IMG/VR virus record: IMGVR_UViG_3300036715_001865
Span: 64,001-128,000 of that record
DNA length: 64,000 nt
Reading direction: 5' to 3' (one strand)
DNA from: a virus
Part shown: piece by piece, positions 1,447 to 57,663 of the stretch
Position numbering within the stretch: the stretch's first letter is position 1
How the letters are laid out: each line of letters opens with the position of its first letter
Notes under the pieces: generated by a model
Seen by the model: only the letters and a program-made list of their open reading frames with translations
What the model was told of the DNA's origin: nothing
Databases searched by the model: none
Made by a program: the position numbers and the translations under genes

Positions 1447-4266
1447 TTATGGGATATAAGAGAATCCTTGTTTCATTTGAATAGTTAATGTATTGTCAAA
1501 TATATGACGAGCTTCTTCTCTGTGTGATATGATATATGTTGATAGTTCTTCTTCCTTAGCTCTACGCTTAATTACCTTTGCAGCCGCCTGAATTCCAACA
1601 GCATCTAAACCAACATCTAATACCTCATCTAACATCCAAATATTTACTTTGGTGTGTAATCGTTGTAAAACATCACTAAATGATAAGGACAGTGCTAGAT
1701 TAACTCGAGCCTTTTGTCCAGCTGATAAATTACCAAAATCTAAGGTATTACCAAATTGAGATATATTAGCAGTCATTTCATGTGTAAATTCAACCGTATG
1801 TCGCAATAGCATCTCTGACAAATAGTATTGCAGTCTAGTATTGAGATAAGGAATGTACTTGTTTAAAAGCATTTTCCTTACAAAACTATCCCGTTTTGTC
1901 AATAACTTCAATAACAGTTTTTGGTGCTCTACTTCTTTTGTTAAAATATTTACCTCTGAAAAATCAATTGAGTCTAGCTTGATGTTAATTAATTCATCTA
2001 ATGCCTCGGTGTGAGGGTTGGTACTAGACAATAACGTATCAATATTAGCCTCTATAGCACTACTTTGGTTTTGTATCTTCAACAAGTCTTTAATATTTGG
2101 TGAAGTAAGTTGTGGCTTTAGGTTGTTTTGAATATTTTCAAGAGCTTCAATGGCTGAGTCCACTTCTGAAAGTTCAATCAACAACTGTTCGTTTGTGTTG
2201 GTTAGTGTACTTACAGAGGATGAAAGCTCATTCAATTTAGTTTCCACATCATTATAATCCTGTAAACAATATGGACATTTATGGGATTGAAGCTGTTCAA
2301 GCTCCTTTGTGTATTTTGTTATTTGTGCTTTATTTGATTTAATGGAGTTTTCCAGTTTATCAAATTGGCCAATATCTACCACCAATTGAAGATTAACTTC
2401 TGTTAATTTATCATGGATTTCCTGTTGTTTTTCTAAATCAACACCCTTTATTTTTGATAATTGGGCTTGTAGTTCCGTTATCTTATTTTTGGTTGTATCT
2501 TCCCAATTAGAGATTCTTGTTTTGGTGTTTGTGATTTGGGAATTGTGTCTAATATGCTCTTGTTGGATTAAATCCAGTCTTGTTTTTTTGATTTTTAGAC
2601 TATTCTCAGTGTCCTTAATAAGCTCCTTCAATGCAACAGCTTTATCAGCTAATACAGTTAATCCCACCAGTCGTTCAAACATACCAGCTTGTTCCGCTTT
2701 TGGCAAATCTAAGAATGGATTCAAAGTCGCACTAAACACAACAATACGCACGAATAAGTCATATGATATCCCAATAACTTCTTCGATATACTTATTTGTA
2801 TTTGTAACACTATCTAATGTTTTATCTTCACCATTGATATAAAAATACACATTATTCCCATTTTTTGATTTCCGTTCTCGCTTAATTAAGTACACATCAT
2901 CTCCAATATCAAATTCAACAGATACTTCCATGTTTTTGTTGTTTATATTGTTGACCAATTTATCCTTGGAAATGTTTGAAACAGGTTTGTCAAATAAAGT
3001 GTACACCAATGCATTCAGTATTGTTGTATTGTGAGTAACAATAAAATCATCAGTAATATATAAATGTTCAGGGCTATCAATCATGATACACTGAGTTTCT
3101 TTTTCTCCTAAATATTCAACCATATCAATTCTCAACCCCGAGTTAGCATATTGGGTATGGCCAATAGATAGCTTTTCTAATTTTCTAGGTAATGTAAACA
3201 ATATATGAGGATTAGGTACTTGTATACTTACCTCATATGATAGTTGACCTTCGACTCGTTCAGAGTTTTGATTTTTATAGAACGGCAATCGTTTAGAAAT
3301 TTTTGCAGTTCCTCCGATACTCCTAATTAAATACTGAACATCTTGTGCTAATTGGTTACTAGAACTAGAAAAACTTATATTTTTCGTTTTTCCAACTGTT
3401 CCATCTGTATCCATAAGACCTTGCAATAATTCCAACTTTTGGTCGTAGTTGCTGTTTATCAAGTATTCAGTTGGAATAAACTTTGTGGATGACTTTGTGT
3501 GTAAAATACCCAATTGAGAAAGTTGCCGCCTAATAGATAATAAATTGTGTGACCCTTTTATATTATTAACAAGTATCCAATCATAATTAGGTGATTTTTT
3601 TCCATACTGCACTAAATGTTGTTTATGAGGTAGTAATAATGACTCGATCCTATCGATAGAGTGGGAATCTGCTGAAGTGAATAATATATATCCCCCACTC
3701 ATACAACCATCTCCCAATAAACTACCAAGTAGGTATGGGTGTATCATAAAATCACTTGGTGGTGTAGTTTTATCTGGTTGTATTTTTGGCACAAAAATAC
3801 TGTATCTGGGATTTTTGTTCTTCCACTCCTCTATTAATGGGATTATTTGTTTAGTGGTAAGGGTCCGAGTACCTCTCTTTCCACTCTGGTCCCACCTGTG
3901 AGAAAATACTTCCCACAAGTGATCTTCATCAGCTTCAGTAGTTCTGCCATCAGAAAATGTGATTTTGTATGTTGGTCTAATACCTTGTGGGTAAACTCCT
4001 ATTATGTTAGCTGTTTTACCATTTGGGGTACTGACTATATCTCCAACTTTACATTCCCCTATTGTTGTCCAACCAATTGGAGTTTTTACTTTACAGTGTA
4101 GTGGTTGAGCTTTACCAGTGCCATTGCCTCCCACACCTTCTGTAGTATCATCTAAATTTTCTCCCATTATTAATGTTGTGCCAACATTTGTAAATTCAAC
4201 CACAGTAGTGTTATTACCGTATGATAAAAAATTACGCATTGAAACAGTTTTAAAAGTAATATTCAT
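1447..4266 (-). CDS. gp46: Rad50/SbcC-like recombination endonuclease ATPase subunit (T4 gp46-like), intein-containing
   Basis: Walker A GGNGTGK|T interrupted by an intein; coiled coil, Zn hook CPYC, signature LSAGQ, Walker B MLDEVLD; adjacent to gp47. Confidence 0.93.
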   Translation of the reverse strand: MNITFKTVSMRNFLSYGNNTTVVEFTNVGTTLIMGENLDDTTEGVGGNGTGKAQPLHCKVKTPIGWTTIGECKVGDIVSTPNGKTANIIGVYPQGIRPTYKITFSDGRTTEADEDHLWEVFSHRWDQSGKRGTRTLTTKQIIPLIEEWKNKNPRYSIFVPKIQPDKTTPPSDFMIHPYLLGSLLGDGCMSGGYILFTSADSHSIDRIESLLLPHKQHLVQYGKKSPNYDWILVNNIKGSHNLLSIRRQLSQLGILHTKSSTKFIPTEYLINSNYDQKLELLQGLMDTDGTVGKTKNISFSSSSNQLAQDVQYLIRSIGGTAKISKRLPFYKNQNSERVEGQLSYEVSIQVPNPHILFTLPRKLEKLSIGHTQYANSGLRIDMVEYLGEKETQCIMIDSPEHLYITDDFIVTHNTTILNALVYTLFDKPVSNISKDKLVNNINNKNMEVSVEFDIGDDVYLIKRERKSKNGNNVYFYINGEDKTLDSVTNTNKYIEEVIGISYDLFVRIVVFSATLNPFLDLPKAEQAGMFERLVGLTVLADKAVALKELIKDTENSLKIKKTRLDLIQQEHIRHNSQITNTKTRISNWEDTTKNKITELQAQLSKIKGVDLEKQQEIHDKLTEVNLQLVVDIGQFDKLENSIKSNKAQITKYTKELEQLQSHKCPYCLQDYNDVETKLNELSSSVSTLTNTNEQLLIELSEVDSAIEALENIQNNLKPQLTSPNIKDLLKIQNQSSAIEANIDTLLSSTNPHTEALDELINIKLDSIDFSEVNILTKEVEHQKLLLKLLTKRDSFVRKMLLNKYIPYLNTRLQYYLSEMLLRHTVEFTHEMTANISQFGNTLDFGNLSAGQKARVNLALSLSFSDVLQRLHTKVNIWMLDEVLDVGLDAVGIQAAAKVIKRRAKEEELSTYIISHREEARHIFDNTLTIQMKQGFSYIP
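3028..4110 (-). mobile_element. 361-aa class-3 (Ala1, W-C-T) intein with LAGLIDADG homing endonuclease
   Basis: Starts AQPL after the Walker A Lys; block B DEDHLW, block F TQCIMI, ends IVTHN followed by Thr+1; LLGSLLGDG and LLQGLMDTDG motifs. Confidence 0.92.
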
Positions 4267-4269
4267 GTG

Positions 4270-5316
4270 TTATGCTAACCTCAAGTATTGTGCAATTAAT
4301 AATTCATTATCGATATGATCTGTGTCAATATCATTTAACATTTGTAACACTAATTCATCTATTGTGCGCAATGATGTATCAGATGTATCTATATCTGAAG
4401 CTTCTGTGTCAGTTATTGCTTCTGATACTTCACTTGACTCATCCATAGAACATTCTCGCAATTGATATTGGGTAGTTAATGTTTGTTTAAGAACAGAGCT
4501 TTCTTCGAAATTAATAGGAACATCAACCAAGCACTTAACTCTGGAATTTGGGTAAATTGACACATTTCCATCCAACACATCTGATAGTTTAACTTTAGTA
4601 TATTTTGGACAATCTTCCCAATTAACAAATGTTTTTTGTTGGGATGTGTGGTTATATACCATTAACCCTCTATCATTATCATCAGCATCACTAAAATTAG
4701 TTGGAAAAGCATTGCCGATGTATACAGTGTTGTTTGTTTGTTGTCGTTTGTGAAAATGTCCTGAAAATATATATGTTGGACCAGTAAAGAGAGTGTGGTC
4801 AGGTCCATTTGTCATAATAACATTATGACCAGTAATAACAAATCCTTTAAATTCAAAATGCCCCCACCAAGTAGCAACATTATCGTATTGTACCAGAGTA
4901 TCATATTCGTGGTGGAATAAATATGGGCAAATTAGTGGTGATGTTTCAATATCATCCACAATTGTTGGTTCAGTGATCATTCTAAAATTTGAAAATTCGT
5001 GAAAAGTAATAGTAGAGTATAGATCACGGTTGTGCCTGTGATATAAATCATGATTACCAATAACAAAAAATATTGGAATCCCAAGGTCATTTAACTTCTT
5101 TGCGCATCGGTGTGAATAATTTAATGTAGACACATTAACGGCAGCTCTGTTTTCATACCAGTCTCCCATAAAGATAACATTATCAGCTTTGTGTTTTATA
5201 GCTTGCAAGCAGAACCAATCAATATAATCAAGACAGTCCTGATTGTGAAGTTCGCTGTTGGATTTTGCACCTACATGTAAATCTGTAAATGCAATAGTGG
5301 TTGTAAGTTTTTTCAT
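4270..5316 (-). CDS. gp47: Mre11/SbcD-like nuclease (T4 gp47-like)
   Basis: Metallophosphoesterase motifs TDLHVG, MGDWYE, GNHD, SGHFH; synteny with gp46 and gp55. Confidence 0.92.
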   Translation of the reverse strand: MKKLTTTIAFTDLHVGAKSNSELHNQDCLDYIDWFCLQAIKHKADNVIFMGDWYENRAAVNVSTLNYSHRCAKKLNDLGIPIFFVIGNHDLYHRHNRDLYSTITFHEFSNFRMITEPTIVDDIETSPLICPYLFHHEYDTLVQYDNVATWWGHFEFKGFVITGHNVIMTNGPDHTLFTGPTYIFSGHFHKRQQTNNTVYIGNAFPTNFSDADDNDRGLMVYNHTSQQKTFVNWEDCPKYTKVKLSDVLDGNVSIYPNSRVKCLVDVPINFEESSVLKQTLTTQYQLRECSMDESSEVSEAITDTEASDIDTSDTSLRTIDELVLQMLNDIDTDHIDNELLIAQYLRLA

Positions 5317-52075: not shown

Positions 52076-53893
52076 ATGTCGAAGGAACAGACAGTTTTAC
52101 ACGGAATCACAGTTGATTATTCAAGAGATAACAACTATGACATTATCGGGCTTGAACGGTTGCGTGATTCATACATGCAACAAGGTGAAGTAAGTCCACA
52201 AGAACGGTTAGCATACGTTAGTTACAAATTTTCCAGCAACCCCGAACATGCACAACGACTATATGATTATTCAAGCAAATTTTGGTTTGGATATGCGACT
52301 CCCATTTTATCATTTGGTAGAAACGGGTACGGTTTACCCATCTCATGCTTTTTAAATACCGTCACTGATAGTAAAGAAGGATTAGTGGACACCCAATCTG
52401 AAACTAATTGGTTAAGTATGATGGGCGGTGGTGTTGGAGTGTATTGGGGCATCCGTGGCCAAGACGAAAAATCAGTTGGTGTCATCCCCCATATGAAAAT
52501 ATATGACGATTCAACCTTAGCATACAAGCAAGGAACAACTCGTCGTGGCAGCTATGCTATGTATTTAGATATTAGCCACCCAGATATTATTGAATTCTTG
52601 GAGATGCGCAAAGAAACTGGTGACCCTAGAAGAAAGTGTCTTAATTTACACTATGGGGTTAATATCCCAAACACTTTCATGCAAATAATAGAAAACAGCA
52701 TGAAAGACCTCAACTTTGACGACTCGTGGGAACTAAAAGACCCTTCCACAGGAAAGGTTCATGATGTTGTCAGTGCTAGGTATTTATGGGAAAAGGTGTT
52801 AGAACTTCGTGCTGGACAAGGTAGGGGCGAACCATATATTCACTATATCGATAACAGCAACGATGCGCTTGATCCACACTTAAAAGCTCAAGGGTACAAA
52901 ATTAAACAATCAAACCTGTGTTCAGAAATTTTATTACACACAGATGAGTTTAAAACCGCTGTGTGTTGTTTAAGTTCTATCAATTTGGATCATTGGGATG
53001 AATACTGTGATAATTATCAATTCTTCAAAGATATTATGGAGATGTTGGACAACGTATTGCAATATTTTATTGATACTGCCTCACCTCGTATTAGTAGAGC
53101 AGTTCTATCTGCTGTGGAAGAAAGAAGTATTGGGTTAGGAGTAATGGGATTCCATTCTTACTTACAACAAAATGGTATTCCTTTTGATGGCGTGATGGCA
53201 AAAGTTGCAAATCTGCGAATATTCAAACAATTTCAACAAATGAGAGACAGAGCCAATCTTGAACTGGGAGCTGAAAGAGGCTCACCAAAACTGATGGAAG
53301 GTACAGGGAAGCGATTTGCCCACACTTGTGCATTAGCTCCAACTGCAAGTAATGCACTTATTTGTGGTAATGTTAGTGCTAGTGCTGAAATGTGGAGAGC
53401 TAACGCTTTTAGACAAGATACGATGAGTGGAACATTTATTCAAAAGAACACATATTTGGATAAGTTGATACATGAAAAAGTAGCAGCATCTTCTGATAAG
53501 TTGGACTATGATGAAATTTGGATTAATATAGTTCAAGACGAAGGTAGTATCCAAAATATTGATATTTTCACTGAATTGGAAAAAGACATTTTCAAAACTG
53601 CAGCCGAAGCTGATTCTATGTGGGCAGTTGAGCACGTAACAGATAGACAACCTTTTATTGATCAAGGACAGAGCTTTAATATATTCATTAGACCAGATAT
53701 AAGTATCAAAAGGTTGCATGCTATTCACTTTAGTGCTTGGAAGAAAGGAGCAAAGACGATGTATTATGTACGAGCAGAGAAACTTGCAAACACTGAGAAA
53801 GTATCACAACGGATTGAACGCCGAAGAATTGAAGATGATATCGATTTAGTGGCTATCGTAAACGACGAAGAATGTCTTTCTTGTCATGGTTAA
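52076..53893 (+). CDS. nrdA: Class I ribonucleotide reductase alpha subunit, no ATP cone
   Basis: ATPILS, PISCFL, GGGVG, SNLCSEI, CCLSSINL, APTASN, YYVR, C-terminal CLSC. Confidence 0.96.
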   Translation: MSKEQTVLHGITVDYSRDNNYDIIGLERLRDSYMQQGEVSPQERLAYVSYKFSSNPEHAQRLYDYSSKFWFGYATPILSFGRNGYGLPISCFLNTVTDSKEGLVDTQSETNWLSMMGGGVGVYWGIRGQDEKSVGVIPHMKIYDDSTLAYKQGTTRRGSYAMYLDISHPDIIEFLEMRKETGDPRRKCLNLHYGVNIPNTFMQIIENSMKDLNFDDSWELKDPSTGKVHDVVSARYLWEKVLELRAGQGRGEPYIHYIDNSNDALDPHLKAQGYKIKQSNLCSEILLHTDEFKTAVCCLSSINLDHWDEYCDNYQFFKDIMEMLDNVLQYFIDTASPRISRAVLSAVEERSIGLGVMGFHSYLQQNGIPFDGVMAKVANLRIFKQFQQMRDRANLELGAERGSPKLMEGTGKRFAHTCALAPTASNALICGNVSASAEMWRANAFRQDTMSGTFIQKNTYLDKLIHEKVAASSDKLDYDEIWINIVQDEGSIQNIDIFTELEKDIFKTAAEADSMWAVEHVTDRQPFIDQGQSFNIFIRPDISIKRLHAIHFSAWKKGAKTMYYVRAEKLANTEKVSQRIERRRIEDDIDLVAIVNDEECLSCHG

Positions 53894-53911
53894 ACAATAA
53901 TACACACATAA

Positions 53912-53936
53912 GATGGTGGACACGATGTCCACCATC
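53912..53936 (+). other. Perfect 11-bp hairpin between nrdA and nrdB (no U-tail)
   Basis: gatggtggaca-cga-tgtccaccatc. Confidence 0.6.
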
Positions 53937-53956
53937 ACTACCCAAAGGAATAACAA

Positions 53957-55006
53957 ATGACCAAAAAGAAAATTAAATTAACAGACAGTAGAGATGCTTT
54001 TAAACCTTTTCAATACCCTGAATTTTATGATTTGTGGCTTAAACATGAACAAATTCATTGGAGCCATTCTGTTGTGGCAATGCAACAAGATATCAGAGAT
54101 TGGAAAAATGCTCCGGATAACCAGAGAAATTTCTTAACTCAAATTTTGCGATTGTTTACCCAAGGGGACATCGATGTTGCAGGTGCTTATATTGATAATT
54201 ACCTTCCAATCTTCCCACAACCTGAAATTAGAATGATGTTGTTAGGGTTTGCAGCAAGAGAGGCAGTTCACATTGCAGCATATAGTCACCTGATGGAAAG
54301 TTTGGGTTTTGAAGACTCTGTTTACACAGATTTCTTTCAATATCAAGAAATGGCAGCAAAGCATGATTTTTTCAAACAAATTTCTGGAACAGATCATAAC
54401 CAAATCGTTCAACAAATGTGTGCTGTTAGTTCGTTTACTGAAGGTATGCAATTATTCAGCTCATTTGCAATGCTATTAAACTTTGGTCGTAATAATATGT
54501 TTCCTGGTATGACAAAAATTGTTACTTGGAGTATTATTGATGAAAGTTGTTTAATTAAGGATACAGAGGTATTAACCCCTACAGGGTGGAAACCAATTCA
54601 ACACCTTTCACTATCAGACCAGTTGCTACAATTTGACATCAATACTGGAAATACTGAATTTGTACACCCCACTAATCTAACACACACTACTAGAACAGAG
54701 TCATACGTGTTTGAGTCTGATGATATCTACCAACATACAACATCTGATCACAGGATGATAACAAAGAGTGGTGAAAAATTTGTGGATATTACAGCAGATA
54801 TGATAAATGAGGATAATAACCTATTGATAATATCTGGCTCTAAGTTATCAGGAGATGATATATTAACAGATGAGGACAAGGCAACTATTGAATTAATCAT
54901 AACTGCCCAATATCCTGTTCAATGGATTTATGACAAAATTCCATTTGTATCATCTGAATGGGCCCATTCAGCAGTAGAATATTATTTAATGTTGACAACT
55001 CGTTAA
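53957..55006 (+). CDS. nrdB: RNR beta subunit N-terminal part (197 aa) fused to the N-half of a split intein (152 aa)
   Basis: KPFQYP, FTQGDIDV, REAVHIAAY, TEGMQLFSSF, WSIIDES|CLIKDTEVLT; ends at TAA 55004-55006. Confidence 0.93.
   Translation: MTKKKIKLTDSRDAFKPFQYPEFYDLWLKHEQIHWSHSVVAMQQDIRDWKNAPDNQRNFLTQILRLFTQGDIDVAGAYIDNYLPIFPQPEIRMMLLGFAAREAVHIAAYSHLMESLGFEDSVYTDFFQYQEMAAKHDFFKQISGTDHNQIVQQMCAVSSFTEGMQLFSSFAMLLNFGRNNMFPGMTKIVTWSIIDESCLIKDTEVLTPTGWKPIQHLSLSDQLLQFDINTGNTEFVHPTNLTHTTRTESYVFESDDIYQHTTSDHRMITKSGEKFVDITADMINEDNNLLIISGSKLSGDDILTDEDKATIELIITAQYPVQWIYDKIPFVSSEWAHSAVEYYLMLTTR
54548..55003 (+). mobile_element. Split intein, N-fragment
   Basis: Cys1 block A CLIKDTEVLTPTGW, block B TSDHRM; no block F/G before the stop. 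Confidence 0.88.
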
Positions 55007-55028
55007 TTGGAGTATCATCGTCCAGTAA

Positions 55029-55036
55029 TATAAATA
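55029..55036 (+). promoter_or_regulatory. Late promoter TATAAATA for the GIY-YIG endonuclease and nrdB-C
   Basis: Exact box 33 nt before the ATG at 55069; AGGAGA SD at 55059-55064. Confidence 0.75.
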
Positions 55037-55068
55037 CATACACAAACCAAGTTACCACAGGAGAGTGT

Positions 55069-55917
55069 ATGCATTACATAATATACAAGACAACAAATAC
55101 TACTAATGGAAAGATTTATATTGGGTTACACAAACAACTTGCGTTAGATTTTGATGGATATTATGGAAGTGGAACAATATTAAAACGAAGTATTGATAAA
55201 CACGGAATTGATAATTTTAAAAGGGAGACATTGTTTGTGTTTGATACCTTAGCTGAAGTAAGAGCCAAGGAGAAAGAATTGGTAACTGAGGAGTTTTGTA
55301 CCAGGTCAGATAATTATAATATTTCTGTTGGTGGAACAGGAGGTAACACCACAGCAGGTTTAACACCACAACAGAAGATGCTCATAAGCGAAAAAACCAA
55401 ACAGGTAAAATTAGAAAAAGGCTCCAACATTTATAGTGGTGAGAAGTTAAAAAATGCCCAAATTAGAATGAAAAATATACGAATTCAACCTGATAATAGA
55501 GGGTTATGTAGGTCCCAGGAATTAAAGGATAGGTGGTCAACTACCAAAAAAGACAAACACCTAAAGTGGATTACAGATGGTGACACATCTAGGTTGATTC
55601 ACTCAACTGATATCATACCAAATAGTTGGAACATTGGTCGAGATCCTAACTATAAACGGTTTACTGCTCACACACAAGAATCTAAAAATATTATATCTAA
55701 AAAAATTAAAGGAGACAAATGTTATAATAATGGGATAGTCAATTTAAAGTTAAAAGTAGGACAATCACCTCCAGATGGGTTTAAATTAGGTATGATACAA
55801 CACCATCTTCCCAAACATTGGATAACCAATGGTACAATAAATAAAAAACATTTAACCAACACCTCTATACCAACCGGTTGGTATAGAGGTCGAACCATAG
55901 GAAAAAAATATGAATAA
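55069..55917 (+). CDS. Free-standing GIY-YIG (Seg-like) homing endonuclease inside nrdB
   Basis: YIIYKTTN..GKIYIGLH..YYGSG..RE.L..YN; three C-terminal W/Y-x-x-[DN]G..P.GW..GR repeats. Confidence 0.9.
   Translation: MHYIIYKTTNTTNGKIYIGLHKQLALDFDGYYGSGTILKRSIDKHGIDNFKRETLFVFDTLAEVRAKEKELVTEEFCTRSDNYNISVGGTGGNTTAGLTPQQKMLISEKTKQVKLEKGSNIYSGEKLKNAQIRMKNIRIQPDNRGLCRSQELKDRWSTTKKDKHLKWITDGDTSRLIHSTDIIPNSWNIGRDPNYKRFTAHTQESKNIISKKIKGDKCYNNGIVNLKLKVGQSPPDGFKLGMIQHHLPKHWITNGTINKKHLTNTSIPTGWYRGRTIGKKYE
55861..55890. repeat. Perfect 30-bp palindrome
   Basis: acctctataccaacc|ggttggtatagaggt, checked base by base. Confidence 0.95.
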
Positions 55918-56113
55918 CACAATTTTAGAAGCATTCAATACACTCGCCAATGTAGCAGGTGGTACAATAAAGGACAATCAGCTTATTAAAACCCCTACTA
56001 CTAAATTTAATAAACAACACATTACCCACGAGCCTTTAGAGTTCTATTGTGCTACTGTGCCTGGTACTGCATTTGTAATTAGGTCAAAAGGAAAAATATC
56101 AGTAACTGGTAAT
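55910..56113 (+). mobile_element. Split intein, C-fragment
   Basis: Blocks F/G ending GN, followed by a Cys+1 nucleophile. Confidence 0.88.
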
Positions 56114-56515
56114 TGCCACTGTGAAGGTATGACCAAATTATTCAGAACATTCATCAAAGAAAATAGAGAAATTTGGACAGATGAACTAAAAGCACAGTTA
56201 TATGGCATCGCTGAAAAAATGGTCGAATTGGAAGATGGATTTATTAATTTGGCATATGGGGTAATGGACGGAAGTGAGTTTAAACTCCCCCTTTATAAAG
56301 AGGACATGCACAAATATATCAGATATATTGCTGATAGACGACTAATTGCTTTGGGGTTGAAAGGTATCTTCAAACACAAAAAGAATCCTCTGCCTTGGAT
56401 TGACGAAATGTTAGTGTTACCTTCACATAGTAACTTTTTTGAACAAGAAGAGAGCTCCTATAGCAAGGGCGCTCTTACAGGCAACTGGGATGACGTGTGG
56501 GGTACTGTGTCATAA
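55910..56515 (+). CDS. nrdB: C-half of the split intein (68 aa) fused to the RNR beta subunit C-terminal part (133 aa)
   Basis: Own ATG and AGGA SD; EFYCATVPGTAFVIRSKGKISVTGN|CHCEGM; E..FI, Y.RYIADRRL, NPLPW, NFFE..Y. Confidence 0.92.
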   Translation: MNNTILEAFNTLANVAGGTIKDNQLIKTPTTKFNKQHITHEPLEFYCATVPGTAFVIRSKGKISVTGNCHCEGMTKLFRTFIKENREIWTDELKAQLYGIAEKMVELEDGFINLAYGVMDGSEFKLPLYKEDMHKYIRYIADRRLIALGLKGIFKHKKNPLPWIDEMLVLPSHSNFFEQEESSYSKGALTGNWDDVWGTVS

Positions 56516-56519
56516 CTCG

Positions 56520-56577
56520 TTGATTTATTGACACGAATATAGTAAAATCCCAGTTAATACAAATTAACTGGGATTTT
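56520..56577 (+). terminator. 15-bp perfect hairpin with U-tail after nrdB, overlapped by a TTGATT-N17-TAAAAT promoter
   Basis: aaaatcccagttaat-acaa-attaactgggatttt (56544-56577); promoter 56520-56548. Confidence 0.7.
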
Positions 56578-56580
56578 TTT

Positions 56581-57663
56581 ATGGCTACAAAAACAGAAGC
56601 ATTCATCGGCAAGGCGTCAGCTATTCATCAACACAAATATGATTATACATTAGTTGAGTATATTAACAATTCGACTAATGTGATAATTATATGTCCCATC
56701 CACGGAAGATTTACTCAACGTCCAGGAAACCATTTAAGCGGTGCTCAATGTAAGGAGTGCTCAAAGCTCAATAGAGCCGCTACAAATTTAGAAAAATATG
56801 GCCATCCAAATATTGCTCACGGCACAAAGAAAGATAAAATATCAACTACCAATATCGAGCGGTATGGTGTATCACAATCTGCTGCAAGTTCAAATAACAT
56901 CAAAAAACGAAAACAAACATTGTTGGGTAGATATGGGGTAGATAATCCATCTAAAATCTTACAATTTCAAGAAAAACGAAAACAAACCTTTTTAGATAGA
57001 TATGGAGCTGATAACCCATCTAATGTATTGTTGTTTCAAGAAAAACGAAAGCAAACTTTTTTAGATAGATATGGAGTACCAAGCTCATTTAAACGTTTAG
57101 ATAGCATAGAAAAGAGTCGCAACACTTGTATACAACAATACGGAGTGCCACACCACACCCAACGAAATATTAGTCCAACAATTTTAAATAATATATCTGA
57201 TTTTGATTGGTTATATGACCAATATATCACTCAACAAAAATCAGCTACAAAAATAGCAATCGAGCTAGGGGTGACAACAAAAACAATATGCACTTACCTG
57301 AAGAGACAAGAAATAACATTACGAAGAATGGTTAAATTCTCGTGGATGTGCATTGATTGGTTGGATTCTATAATGGACAAAGATAACATATTAATTGTAC
57401 ATTCTCTCAACAGTGGAGAATACAATATACCAAATACCAAACTACATGTGGACGGGTTTTGTGAAGCAACAAATACTGTGTATGAATTTCACGGGGATTA
57501 TTGGCACGGAAATCCAACTAAGTACCACCCTGATAGACTTAATACTACTACAAATTCCACAATGGGTGAGCTATACAAAAAAACCATTGAACGGGAAGAA
57601 AAAATTCGAGAACTTGGATATGAATTGGTGATTATGTGGGAATCTGATTTTAACAACCACTAA
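56581..57663 (+). CDS. Homing-endonuclease-like protein, paralogue of 35241-36359
   Basis: KYDY..CPIHG.F.Q.PGNHL..CKEC; RYG repeats; HVDGFCEATNTVYEFHGDYWHG. Confidence 0.75.
   Translation: MATKTEAFIGKASAIHQHKYDYTLVEYINNSTNVIIICPIHGRFTQRPGNHLSGAQCKECSKLNRAATNLEKYGHPNIAHGTKKDKISTTNIERYGVSQSAASSNNIKKRKQTLLGRYGVDNPSKILQFQEKRKQTFLDRYGADNPSNVLLFQEKRKQTFLDRYGVPSSFKRLDSIEKSRNTCIQQYGVPHHTQRNISPTILNNISDFDWLYDQYITQQKSATKIAIELGVTTKTICTYLKRQEITLRRMVKFSWMCIDWLDSIMDKDNILIVHSLNSGEYNIPNTKLHVDGFCEATNTVYEFHGDYWHGNPTKYHPDRLNTTTNSTMGELYKKTIEREEKIRELGYELVIMWESDFNNH
56896..57080 (+). repeat. 69-bp (23-aa) coding tandem repeat
   Basis: tttcaagaaaaacgaaa.caaac.tttttagatagatatggag at 56965 and 57034; (F)QEKRKQTFLDRYG.DNPS units. 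Confidence 0.8.

Follow-up and report, generated by a model that had tools for sequence, protein, structure and literature searches.

How can a phage make the beta subunit of its ribonucleotide reductase (RNR) when the gene for it, nrdB, is interrupted between two ligands of one iron site? The question is raised by positions 64,001 to 128,000 of the IMG/VR virus record IMGVR_UViG_3300036715_001865, a stretch of 64,000 nucleotides that we refer to as the window. Here nrdB consists of two open reading frames (ORFs) on the plus strand, 53957-55006 and 55910-56515, with the gene for a GIY-YIG endonuclease in between. We suggest, with considerable confidence, that this locus encodes a naturally split intein belonging to the AceL NrdHF family, that the GIY-YIG gene lies between the two intein halves, and that the uncultured phage, with at least 190 kb of DNA, has no other nrdB than the gene so divided. 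The two products would be joined by protein trans-splicing.

The two pieces of nrdB and the intein between them

The upstream ORF (N-half) encodes 349 residues and reads ..WSIIDES|CLIKDTEVLT...YYLMLTTR*, where the bar marks the junction between extein and intein and the asterisk the stop codon at 55004-55006. A gap of 62 nucleotides separates this stop from the middle ORF, which runs from an ATG at 55069 to 55917 and encodes 282 residues. The downstream ORF (C-half), of 201 residues, reads ..ISVTGN|CHCEGM; its ATG overlaps the 3' end of the nuclease ORF (TATGAATAA), an AGGA of its own precedes it, and its start overlaps the nuclease stop, making translational coupling from the nuclease to the C-half possible. 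The ORF map reproduces base for base the layout and coordinates given in the initial annotation of this DNA. The parts of the two nrdB genes, with IntN and IntC denoting the N-terminal and C-terminal intein halves, are as follows.

53957 to 54547, plus strand: N-extein of nrdB, 197 residues, ending in an iron ligand (..WSIIDES), PF00268 profile positions 4-194
54548 to 54847, plus strand: HINT N-lobe of IntN, residues 1 to about 100, with block A (CLIKDTEVLT) and block B (TSDHRMI)
54848 to 55006, plus strand: tail of IntN, residues about 101 to 152 and the stop codon, with helices 1-3 of a putative endonuclease relic; LTDEDKATIELIITA is a candidate degenerate LAGLIDADG motif 1
55910 to 56113, plus strand: IntC, 68 residues, with putative relic helix 4 (ILEAFNTLANVAGG), block F (EFYCATVPGTAF, Cys at position F:4) and block G (ISVTGN)
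56114 to 56515, plus strand: C-extein of nrdB, 133 residues and the stop codon, beginning Cys+1-His (iron ligand), PF00268 profile positions 188-281

The two genes together make up one NrdB. In Pfam, residues 15-198 of the N-half correspond to PF00268 positions 4-194 and residues 63-160 of the C-half to positions 188-281. The N-extein is 58-63% identical to intein-less alleles in which it runs straight into the C-extein, which is itself 55-63% identical to its relatives; joined, the exteins give a protein of 330 residues. Since the intein-less alleles of related phages read WSIVDETMHAES (DETMH) at the junction, joining DES to CH restores the ExxH spacing and fixes the extein junction. Removal of the in-frame insertion thus restores a conserved host motif, as is expected of an intein, and the splice junction falls inside the second ExxH iron-ligand motif, which confirms the initial placement of the junction between di-iron ligands.

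The intervening sequence has what defines an intein: blocks A, B, F and G in order, His at B:10 (within a block B that also has Thr B:7, Arg B:11 and Met B:12), a terminal Asn and a Cys at +1. Each of the two same-strand ORFs consists of an extein and an intein half, with the split between blocks B and F, and a free-standing homing endonuclease gene lies between the halves, the arrangement of a fractured gene. Residues 2-109 of IntN match the AceL NrdHF structure (PDB 6zgq) in phmmer, with an expectation value (E) of 2.7e-12, and profile comparison of the halves with full-length relatives gives hhalign probabilities of 99.6% for IntN and 98.1% for residues 4-68 of IntC. The catalytic residues are kept in both alignments of the family (A3 and A6), and the block F Cys, VP and (T/S)GN are invariant in A6. 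Contiguous forms of the same intein (P0002, P0003, P0016, P0018 and P0021) bridge the gap and so establish that the two halves form one intein. Of these, P0002, 59% identical in IntN, comes out as sister to the locus with support 96/98 in a tree of the HINT N-lobe that was built on 76 columns and is mostly unresolved. The fractured nrdB, naturally split intein and free-standing GIY-YIG gene of the initial annotation are thus upheld by Pfam, PHROGs, the 6zgq match and the relatives; its lengths for IntN (152 residues), IntC (68) and the joined NrdB (330) and its charge counts proved exact on recount, and the contiguous and intein-less alleles that it proposed to look for both exist.

We posit that the two nrdB genes are translated separately, and that IntN, which is acidic (24 Asp or Glu against 10 Lys or Arg), would associate with the basic IntC (4 against 7). 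This association would rebuild the HINT fold together with a four-helix bundle, three helices coming from IntN and one from IntC, and trans-splicing would then link ..IIDES with CHCEGM.. into a 330-residue NrdB whose second di-iron ligand motif, ExxH, is whole again.

It is conceivable that the insertion is instead removed from the RNA, as a group I intron with a GIY-YIG ORF, or that it is an artefact of assembly or sequencing, and the nrdB of T4 does carry a group I intron (PMC3653736). Each flank nevertheless has intein blocks in its reading frame. Searching 53500-57000 at E<=1 brought out no Rfam intron model, only one irrelevant weak small RNA match, and neither RF00028 nor any related covariance model reaches its gathering score in the whole window, so that a group I intron is not identified by this standard. 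Three public runs, of microbial mat and sediment metagenomes, yield Logan contigs with the identical arrangement; one of these contigs, whose run is not the probable source, agrees with 54687-56471 at every position, from the tail of IntN through the nuclease gene and IntC into the C-extein. Those run contigs show no joint at the locus that lacks the homing endonuclease gene or the intein, and such alleles may still exist. The layout is, moreover, common to the relatives. We give practically no credence to either explanation; RNA splicing and sequencing error, both named in the initial annotation as ways in which it could fail, are excluded as far as sequence allows.

A different objection is that the halves never splice, and that they assemble without a covalent bond into an active NrdB, the intein-like ends serving as interaction domains only. 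There is a precedent in the NrdA pieces of Aeromonas phage Aeh1 around mobE (PMC3045599), as described in PMC2677866, and the four-helix unit discussed below could be a docking module. At the locus, though, two ligands of one iron site stand on either side of the break, separated by 220 foreign residues; the splicing residues are all retained despite divergence, and the homologue AceL NrdHF splices to completion in vitro, with mutant effects reported (PMC7891396). We consider non-covalent assembly extremely unlikely. Neither does the locus look dead or decaying, with an intein or nrdB that no longer functions and a phage that relies on the RNR of its host. Other phage RNR genes broken by mobile elements have been described as degenerating (PMC3653736); here the ORFs are open and of full length, the iron ligands and the region of the radical-site Tyr are intact, Shine-Dalgarno (SD) sequences are present, and the arrangement has been maintained in at least six lineages at 29-71% identity. 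Decay is in our view very unlikely, and the preferred reading remains a functional split intein.

The endonuclease gene and the relatives of the cassette

The middle gene encodes a predicted GIY-YIG homing endonuclease, with an N-terminal catalytic domain and a C-terminal DNA-binding region in a free-standing ORF. Residues 5-73 match PF19835 (SegE_GIY-YIG) at 26.6 bits against a cut-off of 25, and residues 1-214 match the PHROGs homing endonuclease family phrog_314 at E 2e-32. The gene and the signals around it are these.

55029 to 55036, plus strand: TATAAATA, a T4-type late-promoter-like motif in the 62-nucleotide gap
55037 to 55071, plus strand: hairpin with a 7-bp stem (55037-55043 with 55065-55071) that contains the nuclease start codon, RNAfold -15.6 kcal/mol
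55059 to 55063, plus strand: SD sequence AGGAG of the nuclease gene, read from the sequence
55069 to 55917, plus strand: free-standing GIY-YIG homing endonuclease gene, 282 residues (PF19835, phrog_314)
55861 to 55890, plus strand: perfect 30-bp palindrome in the 3' end of the nuclease ORF, 20 nucleotides before the C-half start codon, found by self-complementarity

Across the window TATAAATA occurs at chance level (12 copies against 11.8 expected), and only its recurrence in the homologous gap can therefore count. There it is found in five of eight related lineages, that of AceL included, with a chance of about 0.006 per gap. This recurrence, together with the motif at 55029-55036 and the SD at 55059-55063, sustains the proposal that the nuclease gene has a late-promoter-like signal and an SD of its own. 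Comparable hairpins that occlude the start are present in L096 and L083. In T4-type phages (I-TevI; mobE of Aeh1), read-through transcripts hide the start codon of the endonuclease, and late transcripts that start in the 5' arm free it. By analogy, we infer control of this kind at the locus: the endonuclease gene would be expressed from its own late promoter, with its start codon masked by the hairpin in read-through transcripts, and its product would probably mobilise the cassette.

The palindrome was considered as part of this mechanism and dropped. As an RNA hairpin it is stable (-19.7 kcal/mol, z-score -4.6), but it is not conserved in the relatives, being absent at the same position in L003, L096, L099 and L085; the GC hairpin that L098 has at this position is unrelated.

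This layout of three genes is shared by L003/L089-96, L083/L093, L098, L099/100 and L101, and by the AceL locus L085. The nucleases of the first five groups are 34-54% identical to the one described here, the counterparts in L003/L083 reaching 53-54% and those in L098/L099 39-41% at the same place; the GIY-YIG protein of the AceL locus is 29% identical over residues 5-242. Because both the intein and the nuclease are homologous to those of AceL, the homology extends to the whole cassette and not to its layout alone.

More distant members are numerous. Among 1.84 billion representative proteins there were 162 matches at E<=1e-3, and many of these are NrdB or NrdF proteins in which inteins occupy this site and the first ExxH motif. 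With IntC as the query, a word-indexed search brought up a single close relative (P0161). A single-protein scan of viral contigs with IntN found none, and relatives in those contigs came from alignment-based scans. Among 50,697 deposited phage genomes (2025 INPHARED; tblastn of IntN) no nrdB intein was found; the matches were to distant inteins, in the genes for terminase, polymerase and RtcB, and within that comparison the family is so far known from metagenomes alone.

Several side observations concern these relatives. Many NrdB and NrdF proteins have two inteins of the family, one in each ExxH iron-ligand motif (extein residues about 100-115 and 195-215), as in P0017, P0027, P0029, P0032, P0037, P0044, P0055, P0057 and P0106. 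In several relatives that lack the intein (L005, L006, L067 and others), nrdB is instead followed by a GIY-YIG-like gene. A C-terminal domain resembling glutaredoxin or NrdH is present in the C-half of L098 (4971-5825) and in P0026 (..YSKPGCPQCDQAK.., ..YGRDGCEFCTRAK..), the opposite of the N-terminal NrdH of AceL NrdHF. Outside RNR, the viral contigs L107, L108, L109 and L111 have the same intein family at about 3501-4508, in a large protein that is not an RNR, where the intein follows ..LDE and shows the block F Cys and TGN|CH; it has a full LAGLIDADG-like domain in L107-109 and is a mini-intein in L111. The host motif DE|CH of this group looks like a DExH helicase box.

Two genes flank the interrupted nrdB.

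52076 to 53893, plus strand: nrdA, RNR large subunit, 605 residues, adjoining nrdB upstream (PF02867 at E 3e-94; PF00317)
56581 to 57663, plus strand: second endonuclease-like gene, free-standing, 360 residues (PF24308 at E 1e-23; phrog_3339, homing endonuclease, at E 4e-18)

The second of these has DUF7487 repeats and a C-terminal ..VYEFHGDYWHGNP.. region, and is a neighbour that lies outside the intein cassette. The nrdA-nrdB region thus holds two selfish nuclease genes.

The four-helix segment

The intein at this locus is 74 residues longer than that of AceL, and the extra segment is among its best-conserved parts; about 65 of the additional residues make up a four-helix unit. In an AlphaFold model of the contiguous relative P0003 (mean predicted local distance difference test score, pLDDT, of 83), the HINT fold contains an inserted four-helix unit, over most of which the block-mean pLDDT is 93-96. 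The model matches 6zgq_B in Foldseek (E 1.5e-9, template modelling score 0.85 on the target), and R2 proteins are matched as well. Helices 309-320, 326-334 and 337-350 precede the point at which the nuclease gene is inserted in the split forms and helix 357-366 follows it; the GIY-YIG gene, that is, sits in the loop between helices 3 and 4.

At the same place, the related full-length inteins L107, L084 and L088 (in other host proteins) and L087 (in NrdF) have an insert of about 200 residues with LAGLIDADG-type motifs, that of L107 giving a weak match to PF14528 (E 0.003) below the cut-off. Three pieces of the locus align with this insert. LTDEDKATIELIITA aligns with LTPLERLLIAIQADG, which is motif 1, as part of the 99.6% alignment, the motif reading ELIITAQ with its acidic residue lost, as against AIQADG in relatives; WIYDKIPFVSSEWAHSAVEYYL aligns with WVDLSDKSSEWCEEFIEELIE at E 7e-4 and a probability of only 26%; and ILEAFNTLANVAGG aligns with ADIVQLIAANAGV inside the 98% alignment. 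With the helices collinear with three pieces of a LAGLIDADG domain, the segments that the initial annotation took for linker remnants read as the relic of a nested LAGLIDADG endonuclease that has lost its DNA-binding sheets. Only the helices are left, the beta-sheet part of about 130 residues being absent, and the segment does not qualify as a LAGLIDADG domain. The relic is kept across lineages, in split and contiguous members alike, at 33-71% identity, and is consequently uninformative on how recent the split is, contrary to the initial suggestion that long remnants mark a recent one. We infer that the relic now helps the two halves to dock.

Relic and nuclease may also travel together. L101 is split and has both, and L086 is contiguous, a mini-intein that lacks the relic. 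Their DNA is 91% identical from nrdA across the N-extein and the HINT N-lobe as far as the INDYK codons, beyond which the two are unrelated, a pattern which indicates that relic and nuclease were gained or lost together by recombination within the intein. In the same pair (L101:2910-3941 and L086:2880-4331) the first residues of the intein are wholly different, DE|SFTKETPVFV against DE|CCEHNTLVFV. A short, compensated frameshift or a patch of conversion may account for this difference at the N-junction, and L101 would then start with Ser.

Splicing chemistry and comparison with known systems

Which cysteine would start the reaction? In AceL NrdHF, mutagenesis has identified His68 and Cys124 as essential and Arg69, Met70, Thr144, Asn146 and the +1 nucleophile as important (PMC7891396), and the locus has all of the corresponding residues: His B:10, Arg B:11, Met B:12, the block F Cys, the C-terminal Thr-Gly-Asn and a +1 nucleophile. 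Two of the marks of class 3 inteins are present. The Cys at block F position 4 (C2:4) lies in EFYCATVPG, which aligns with AceL Cys124 (EFHCLSVPG in L085; Ala in the crystal construct), and Trp or Met at B:12 with Thr at C1:5 is represented by HRM and TGN, equivalent to AceL Met70 and Thr144. The third mark, a position 1 that is not Cys, Ser or Thr, is missing, as position 1 is Cys. By the definition of Tori et al. (2009) and Hoffmann et al. (2020), a class 3 intein also passes through an obligate branched thioester on the block F Cys.

In the relatives, position 1 is Ala, Cys, Ser or Pro where the block F Cys is retained. Five members have Cys, Gly and Ser at position 1, F:4 and +1, Gly at F:4 being always accompanied by Cys1 and Ser+1, and from their sequences we take these to be true class 1 inteins. 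Another group has Ala or Pro, then Cys, then Ser, Thr or Cys, and its members would be class 3 by the same reasoning. About a dozen members, the locus included, have Cys at all three positions.

One account of these three-cysteine members is the canonical class 1 route, in which the initial thioester forms on Cys1 and passes to Cys+1, with the block F Cys as a bystander inherited from class 3 ancestors. The locus has both Cys1 and Cys+1, its TSDH represents the class 1 TxxH motif, the same-site NrdB inteins with Cys1, Gly F:4 and Ser+1 must work in this way, and AceL itself behaves like class 1 at B:12 (PMC7891396). We regard this route as a credible possibility without favouring it. All Cys1 members with a C-part, at identities as low as about 33%, retain Met B:12, the Thr of TGN and the block F Cys, and close relatives change position 1 while the block F Cys stays: Cys in P0004 is Pro in its sister P0021, and Cys in L086 is Ser in L101. 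These swaps lead us to rank a block-F-dependent mechanism somewhat above plain class 1, and our best guess is that the block F Cys is still needed, in a class 3-like or dual mechanism, with Cys1 as an optional or auxiliary nucleophile. The control proposed in the initial annotation, a C1A mutant in which splicing is lost, assumes class 1 chemistry and appears questionable; with the block F Cys kept and position 1 variable, C1A may be tolerated and may not abolish splicing.

We would also raise, tentatively and as an unlikely proposition, that one homologous intein family at one NrdB/NrdF site spans class 1 to class 3, with the junction sliding by one codon between subgroups and the three-cysteine members as natural intermediates. 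If those members can use either nucleophile, class 3 chemistry would have arisen or reverted by small steps within a class 1 lineage. A separate origin of class 3 chemistry from a protease has been proposed (PMC7664689), and such small-step change, if true, argues against it. Three active-site cysteines in an oxygen-dependent enzyme might, in addition, allow redox-gated splicing.

Several points weigh against our reading of the locus. The Pfam intein and Hint models match neither half, even at E<=10, which is why the intein call is based on the 6zgq match, the profile comparisons and the motifs; the match of IntC by itself to 6zgq is weak (phmmer E 0.046). The two nrdB pieces are the only PF00268 matches in the 190-kb record, and that record is estimated to be 54% complete, so that a second, intact nrdB elsewhere is possible. 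The hairpin at the nuclease start codon has a z-score of only -2.0. Trans-splicing is deduced from sequence, and either cysteine may start the reaction, Cys1 and Cys+1 being also the canonical class 1 pair. We assign the locus to the AceL NrdHF intein family and to no single mechanistic class.

The initial annotation knew of no such arrangement for the RNR beta subunit, and this claim to novelty fails: a homologous split intein in that subunit was published in 2020, with biochemistry and a crystal structure (PMC7891396; PDB 6ZGQ), and what remains of value here is comparative. One intein at one site can be followed through contiguous forms with a full endonuclease, with a relic and as a mini-intein, and through split forms with a relic and, in AceL, without one. 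Position 1 changes along this series and the block F Cys stays, which provides material on the origin of split inteins and on the interconversion of class 1 and class 3. The four-helix docking relic and the Cys/Cys junction may further give an affinity, an extein tolerance and an orthogonality unlike those of AceL NrdHF, making the locus a candidate ligation tool. What deserves the attention of specialists is this comparative series, together with the three-cysteine active site.

Among known systems, AceL NrdHF is the closest. It is a naturally split class 3 intein from a phage-like contig of Ace Lake (Hoffmann, Terhorst, Singh, Kummel, Pietrokovski and Mootz, 2020/21, ChemBioChem; PMC7891396; PDB 6ZGQ). 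Its host gene encodes a class Ib beta subunit and has a GIY-YIG gene between its two parts; IntN has 98 residues and IntC 48, the Kd of the fragments is 82 nM, position 1 is Ala and +1 Ser, the exteins read SIRDE|..|SMHVE, the WCT triplet is present in a Met-Cys-Thr variant, and there is no penultimate His (PMC7891396). We recovered this locus from metagenome and viral collections (L085, L102-106; SIRDE|ALLVGTKV.., ..FHCLSVPG..VTGN|SMHVE). The two systems share a homologous intein (IntN 33% and IntC 41% identical), the RNR beta subunit as host protein, the ExxH motif, the fractured layout with a homologous GIY-YIG gene, the Met-Cys-Thr triplet, the VPG kink, the lack of a penultimate His and a phage-like source. 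They differ in that the locus has Cys1 and Cys+1 where AceL has Ala1 and Ser+1, and in that its junction lies one codon downstream (DEx|C...TGN|CH against DE|A...TGN|(S/T)xH), both junctions restoring ExxH. The intein halves of the locus, 152 and 68 residues against 98 and 48, are longer because the putative four-helix LAGLIDADG relic is retained; its host protein is an NrdB without an NrdH fusion, and its source a microbial mat or sediment phage, not Ace Lake.

The fractured genes described by Dassa, London, Stoddard, Schueler-Furman and Pietrokovski (2009) for gp41, IMPDH, NrdA, NrdJ, DnaE and others resemble the locus in their two same-strand ORFs with split-intein halves and in a free-standing GIY-YIG or Vsr-like gene between them that has its own control region and hairpin (PMC2677866). 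No beta-subunit case is listed there, nrdB appearing only as a neighbour, and the inteins are of a different family (PMC2677866). In the nrdA/mobE system of phage Aeh1 (Friedrich, Crona, Edgell et al.; PMC3045599), a free-standing homing endonuclease gene, controlled by a late promoter and a hairpin, likewise divides a T4-type phage RNR gene in two; there, the alpha subunit is affected, no intein is involved and the pieces assemble non-covalently. Finally, WCT-motif (class 3) inteins that start with Ser1 or Cys1 exist, with a mechanism that was then still under study (Tori et al., 2009; PMC2807308). These are contiguous, have Trp at B:12 and reside in other host proteins, and what they have in common with the locus is an N-terminal nucleophile together with the block F Cys signature (PMC2807308).

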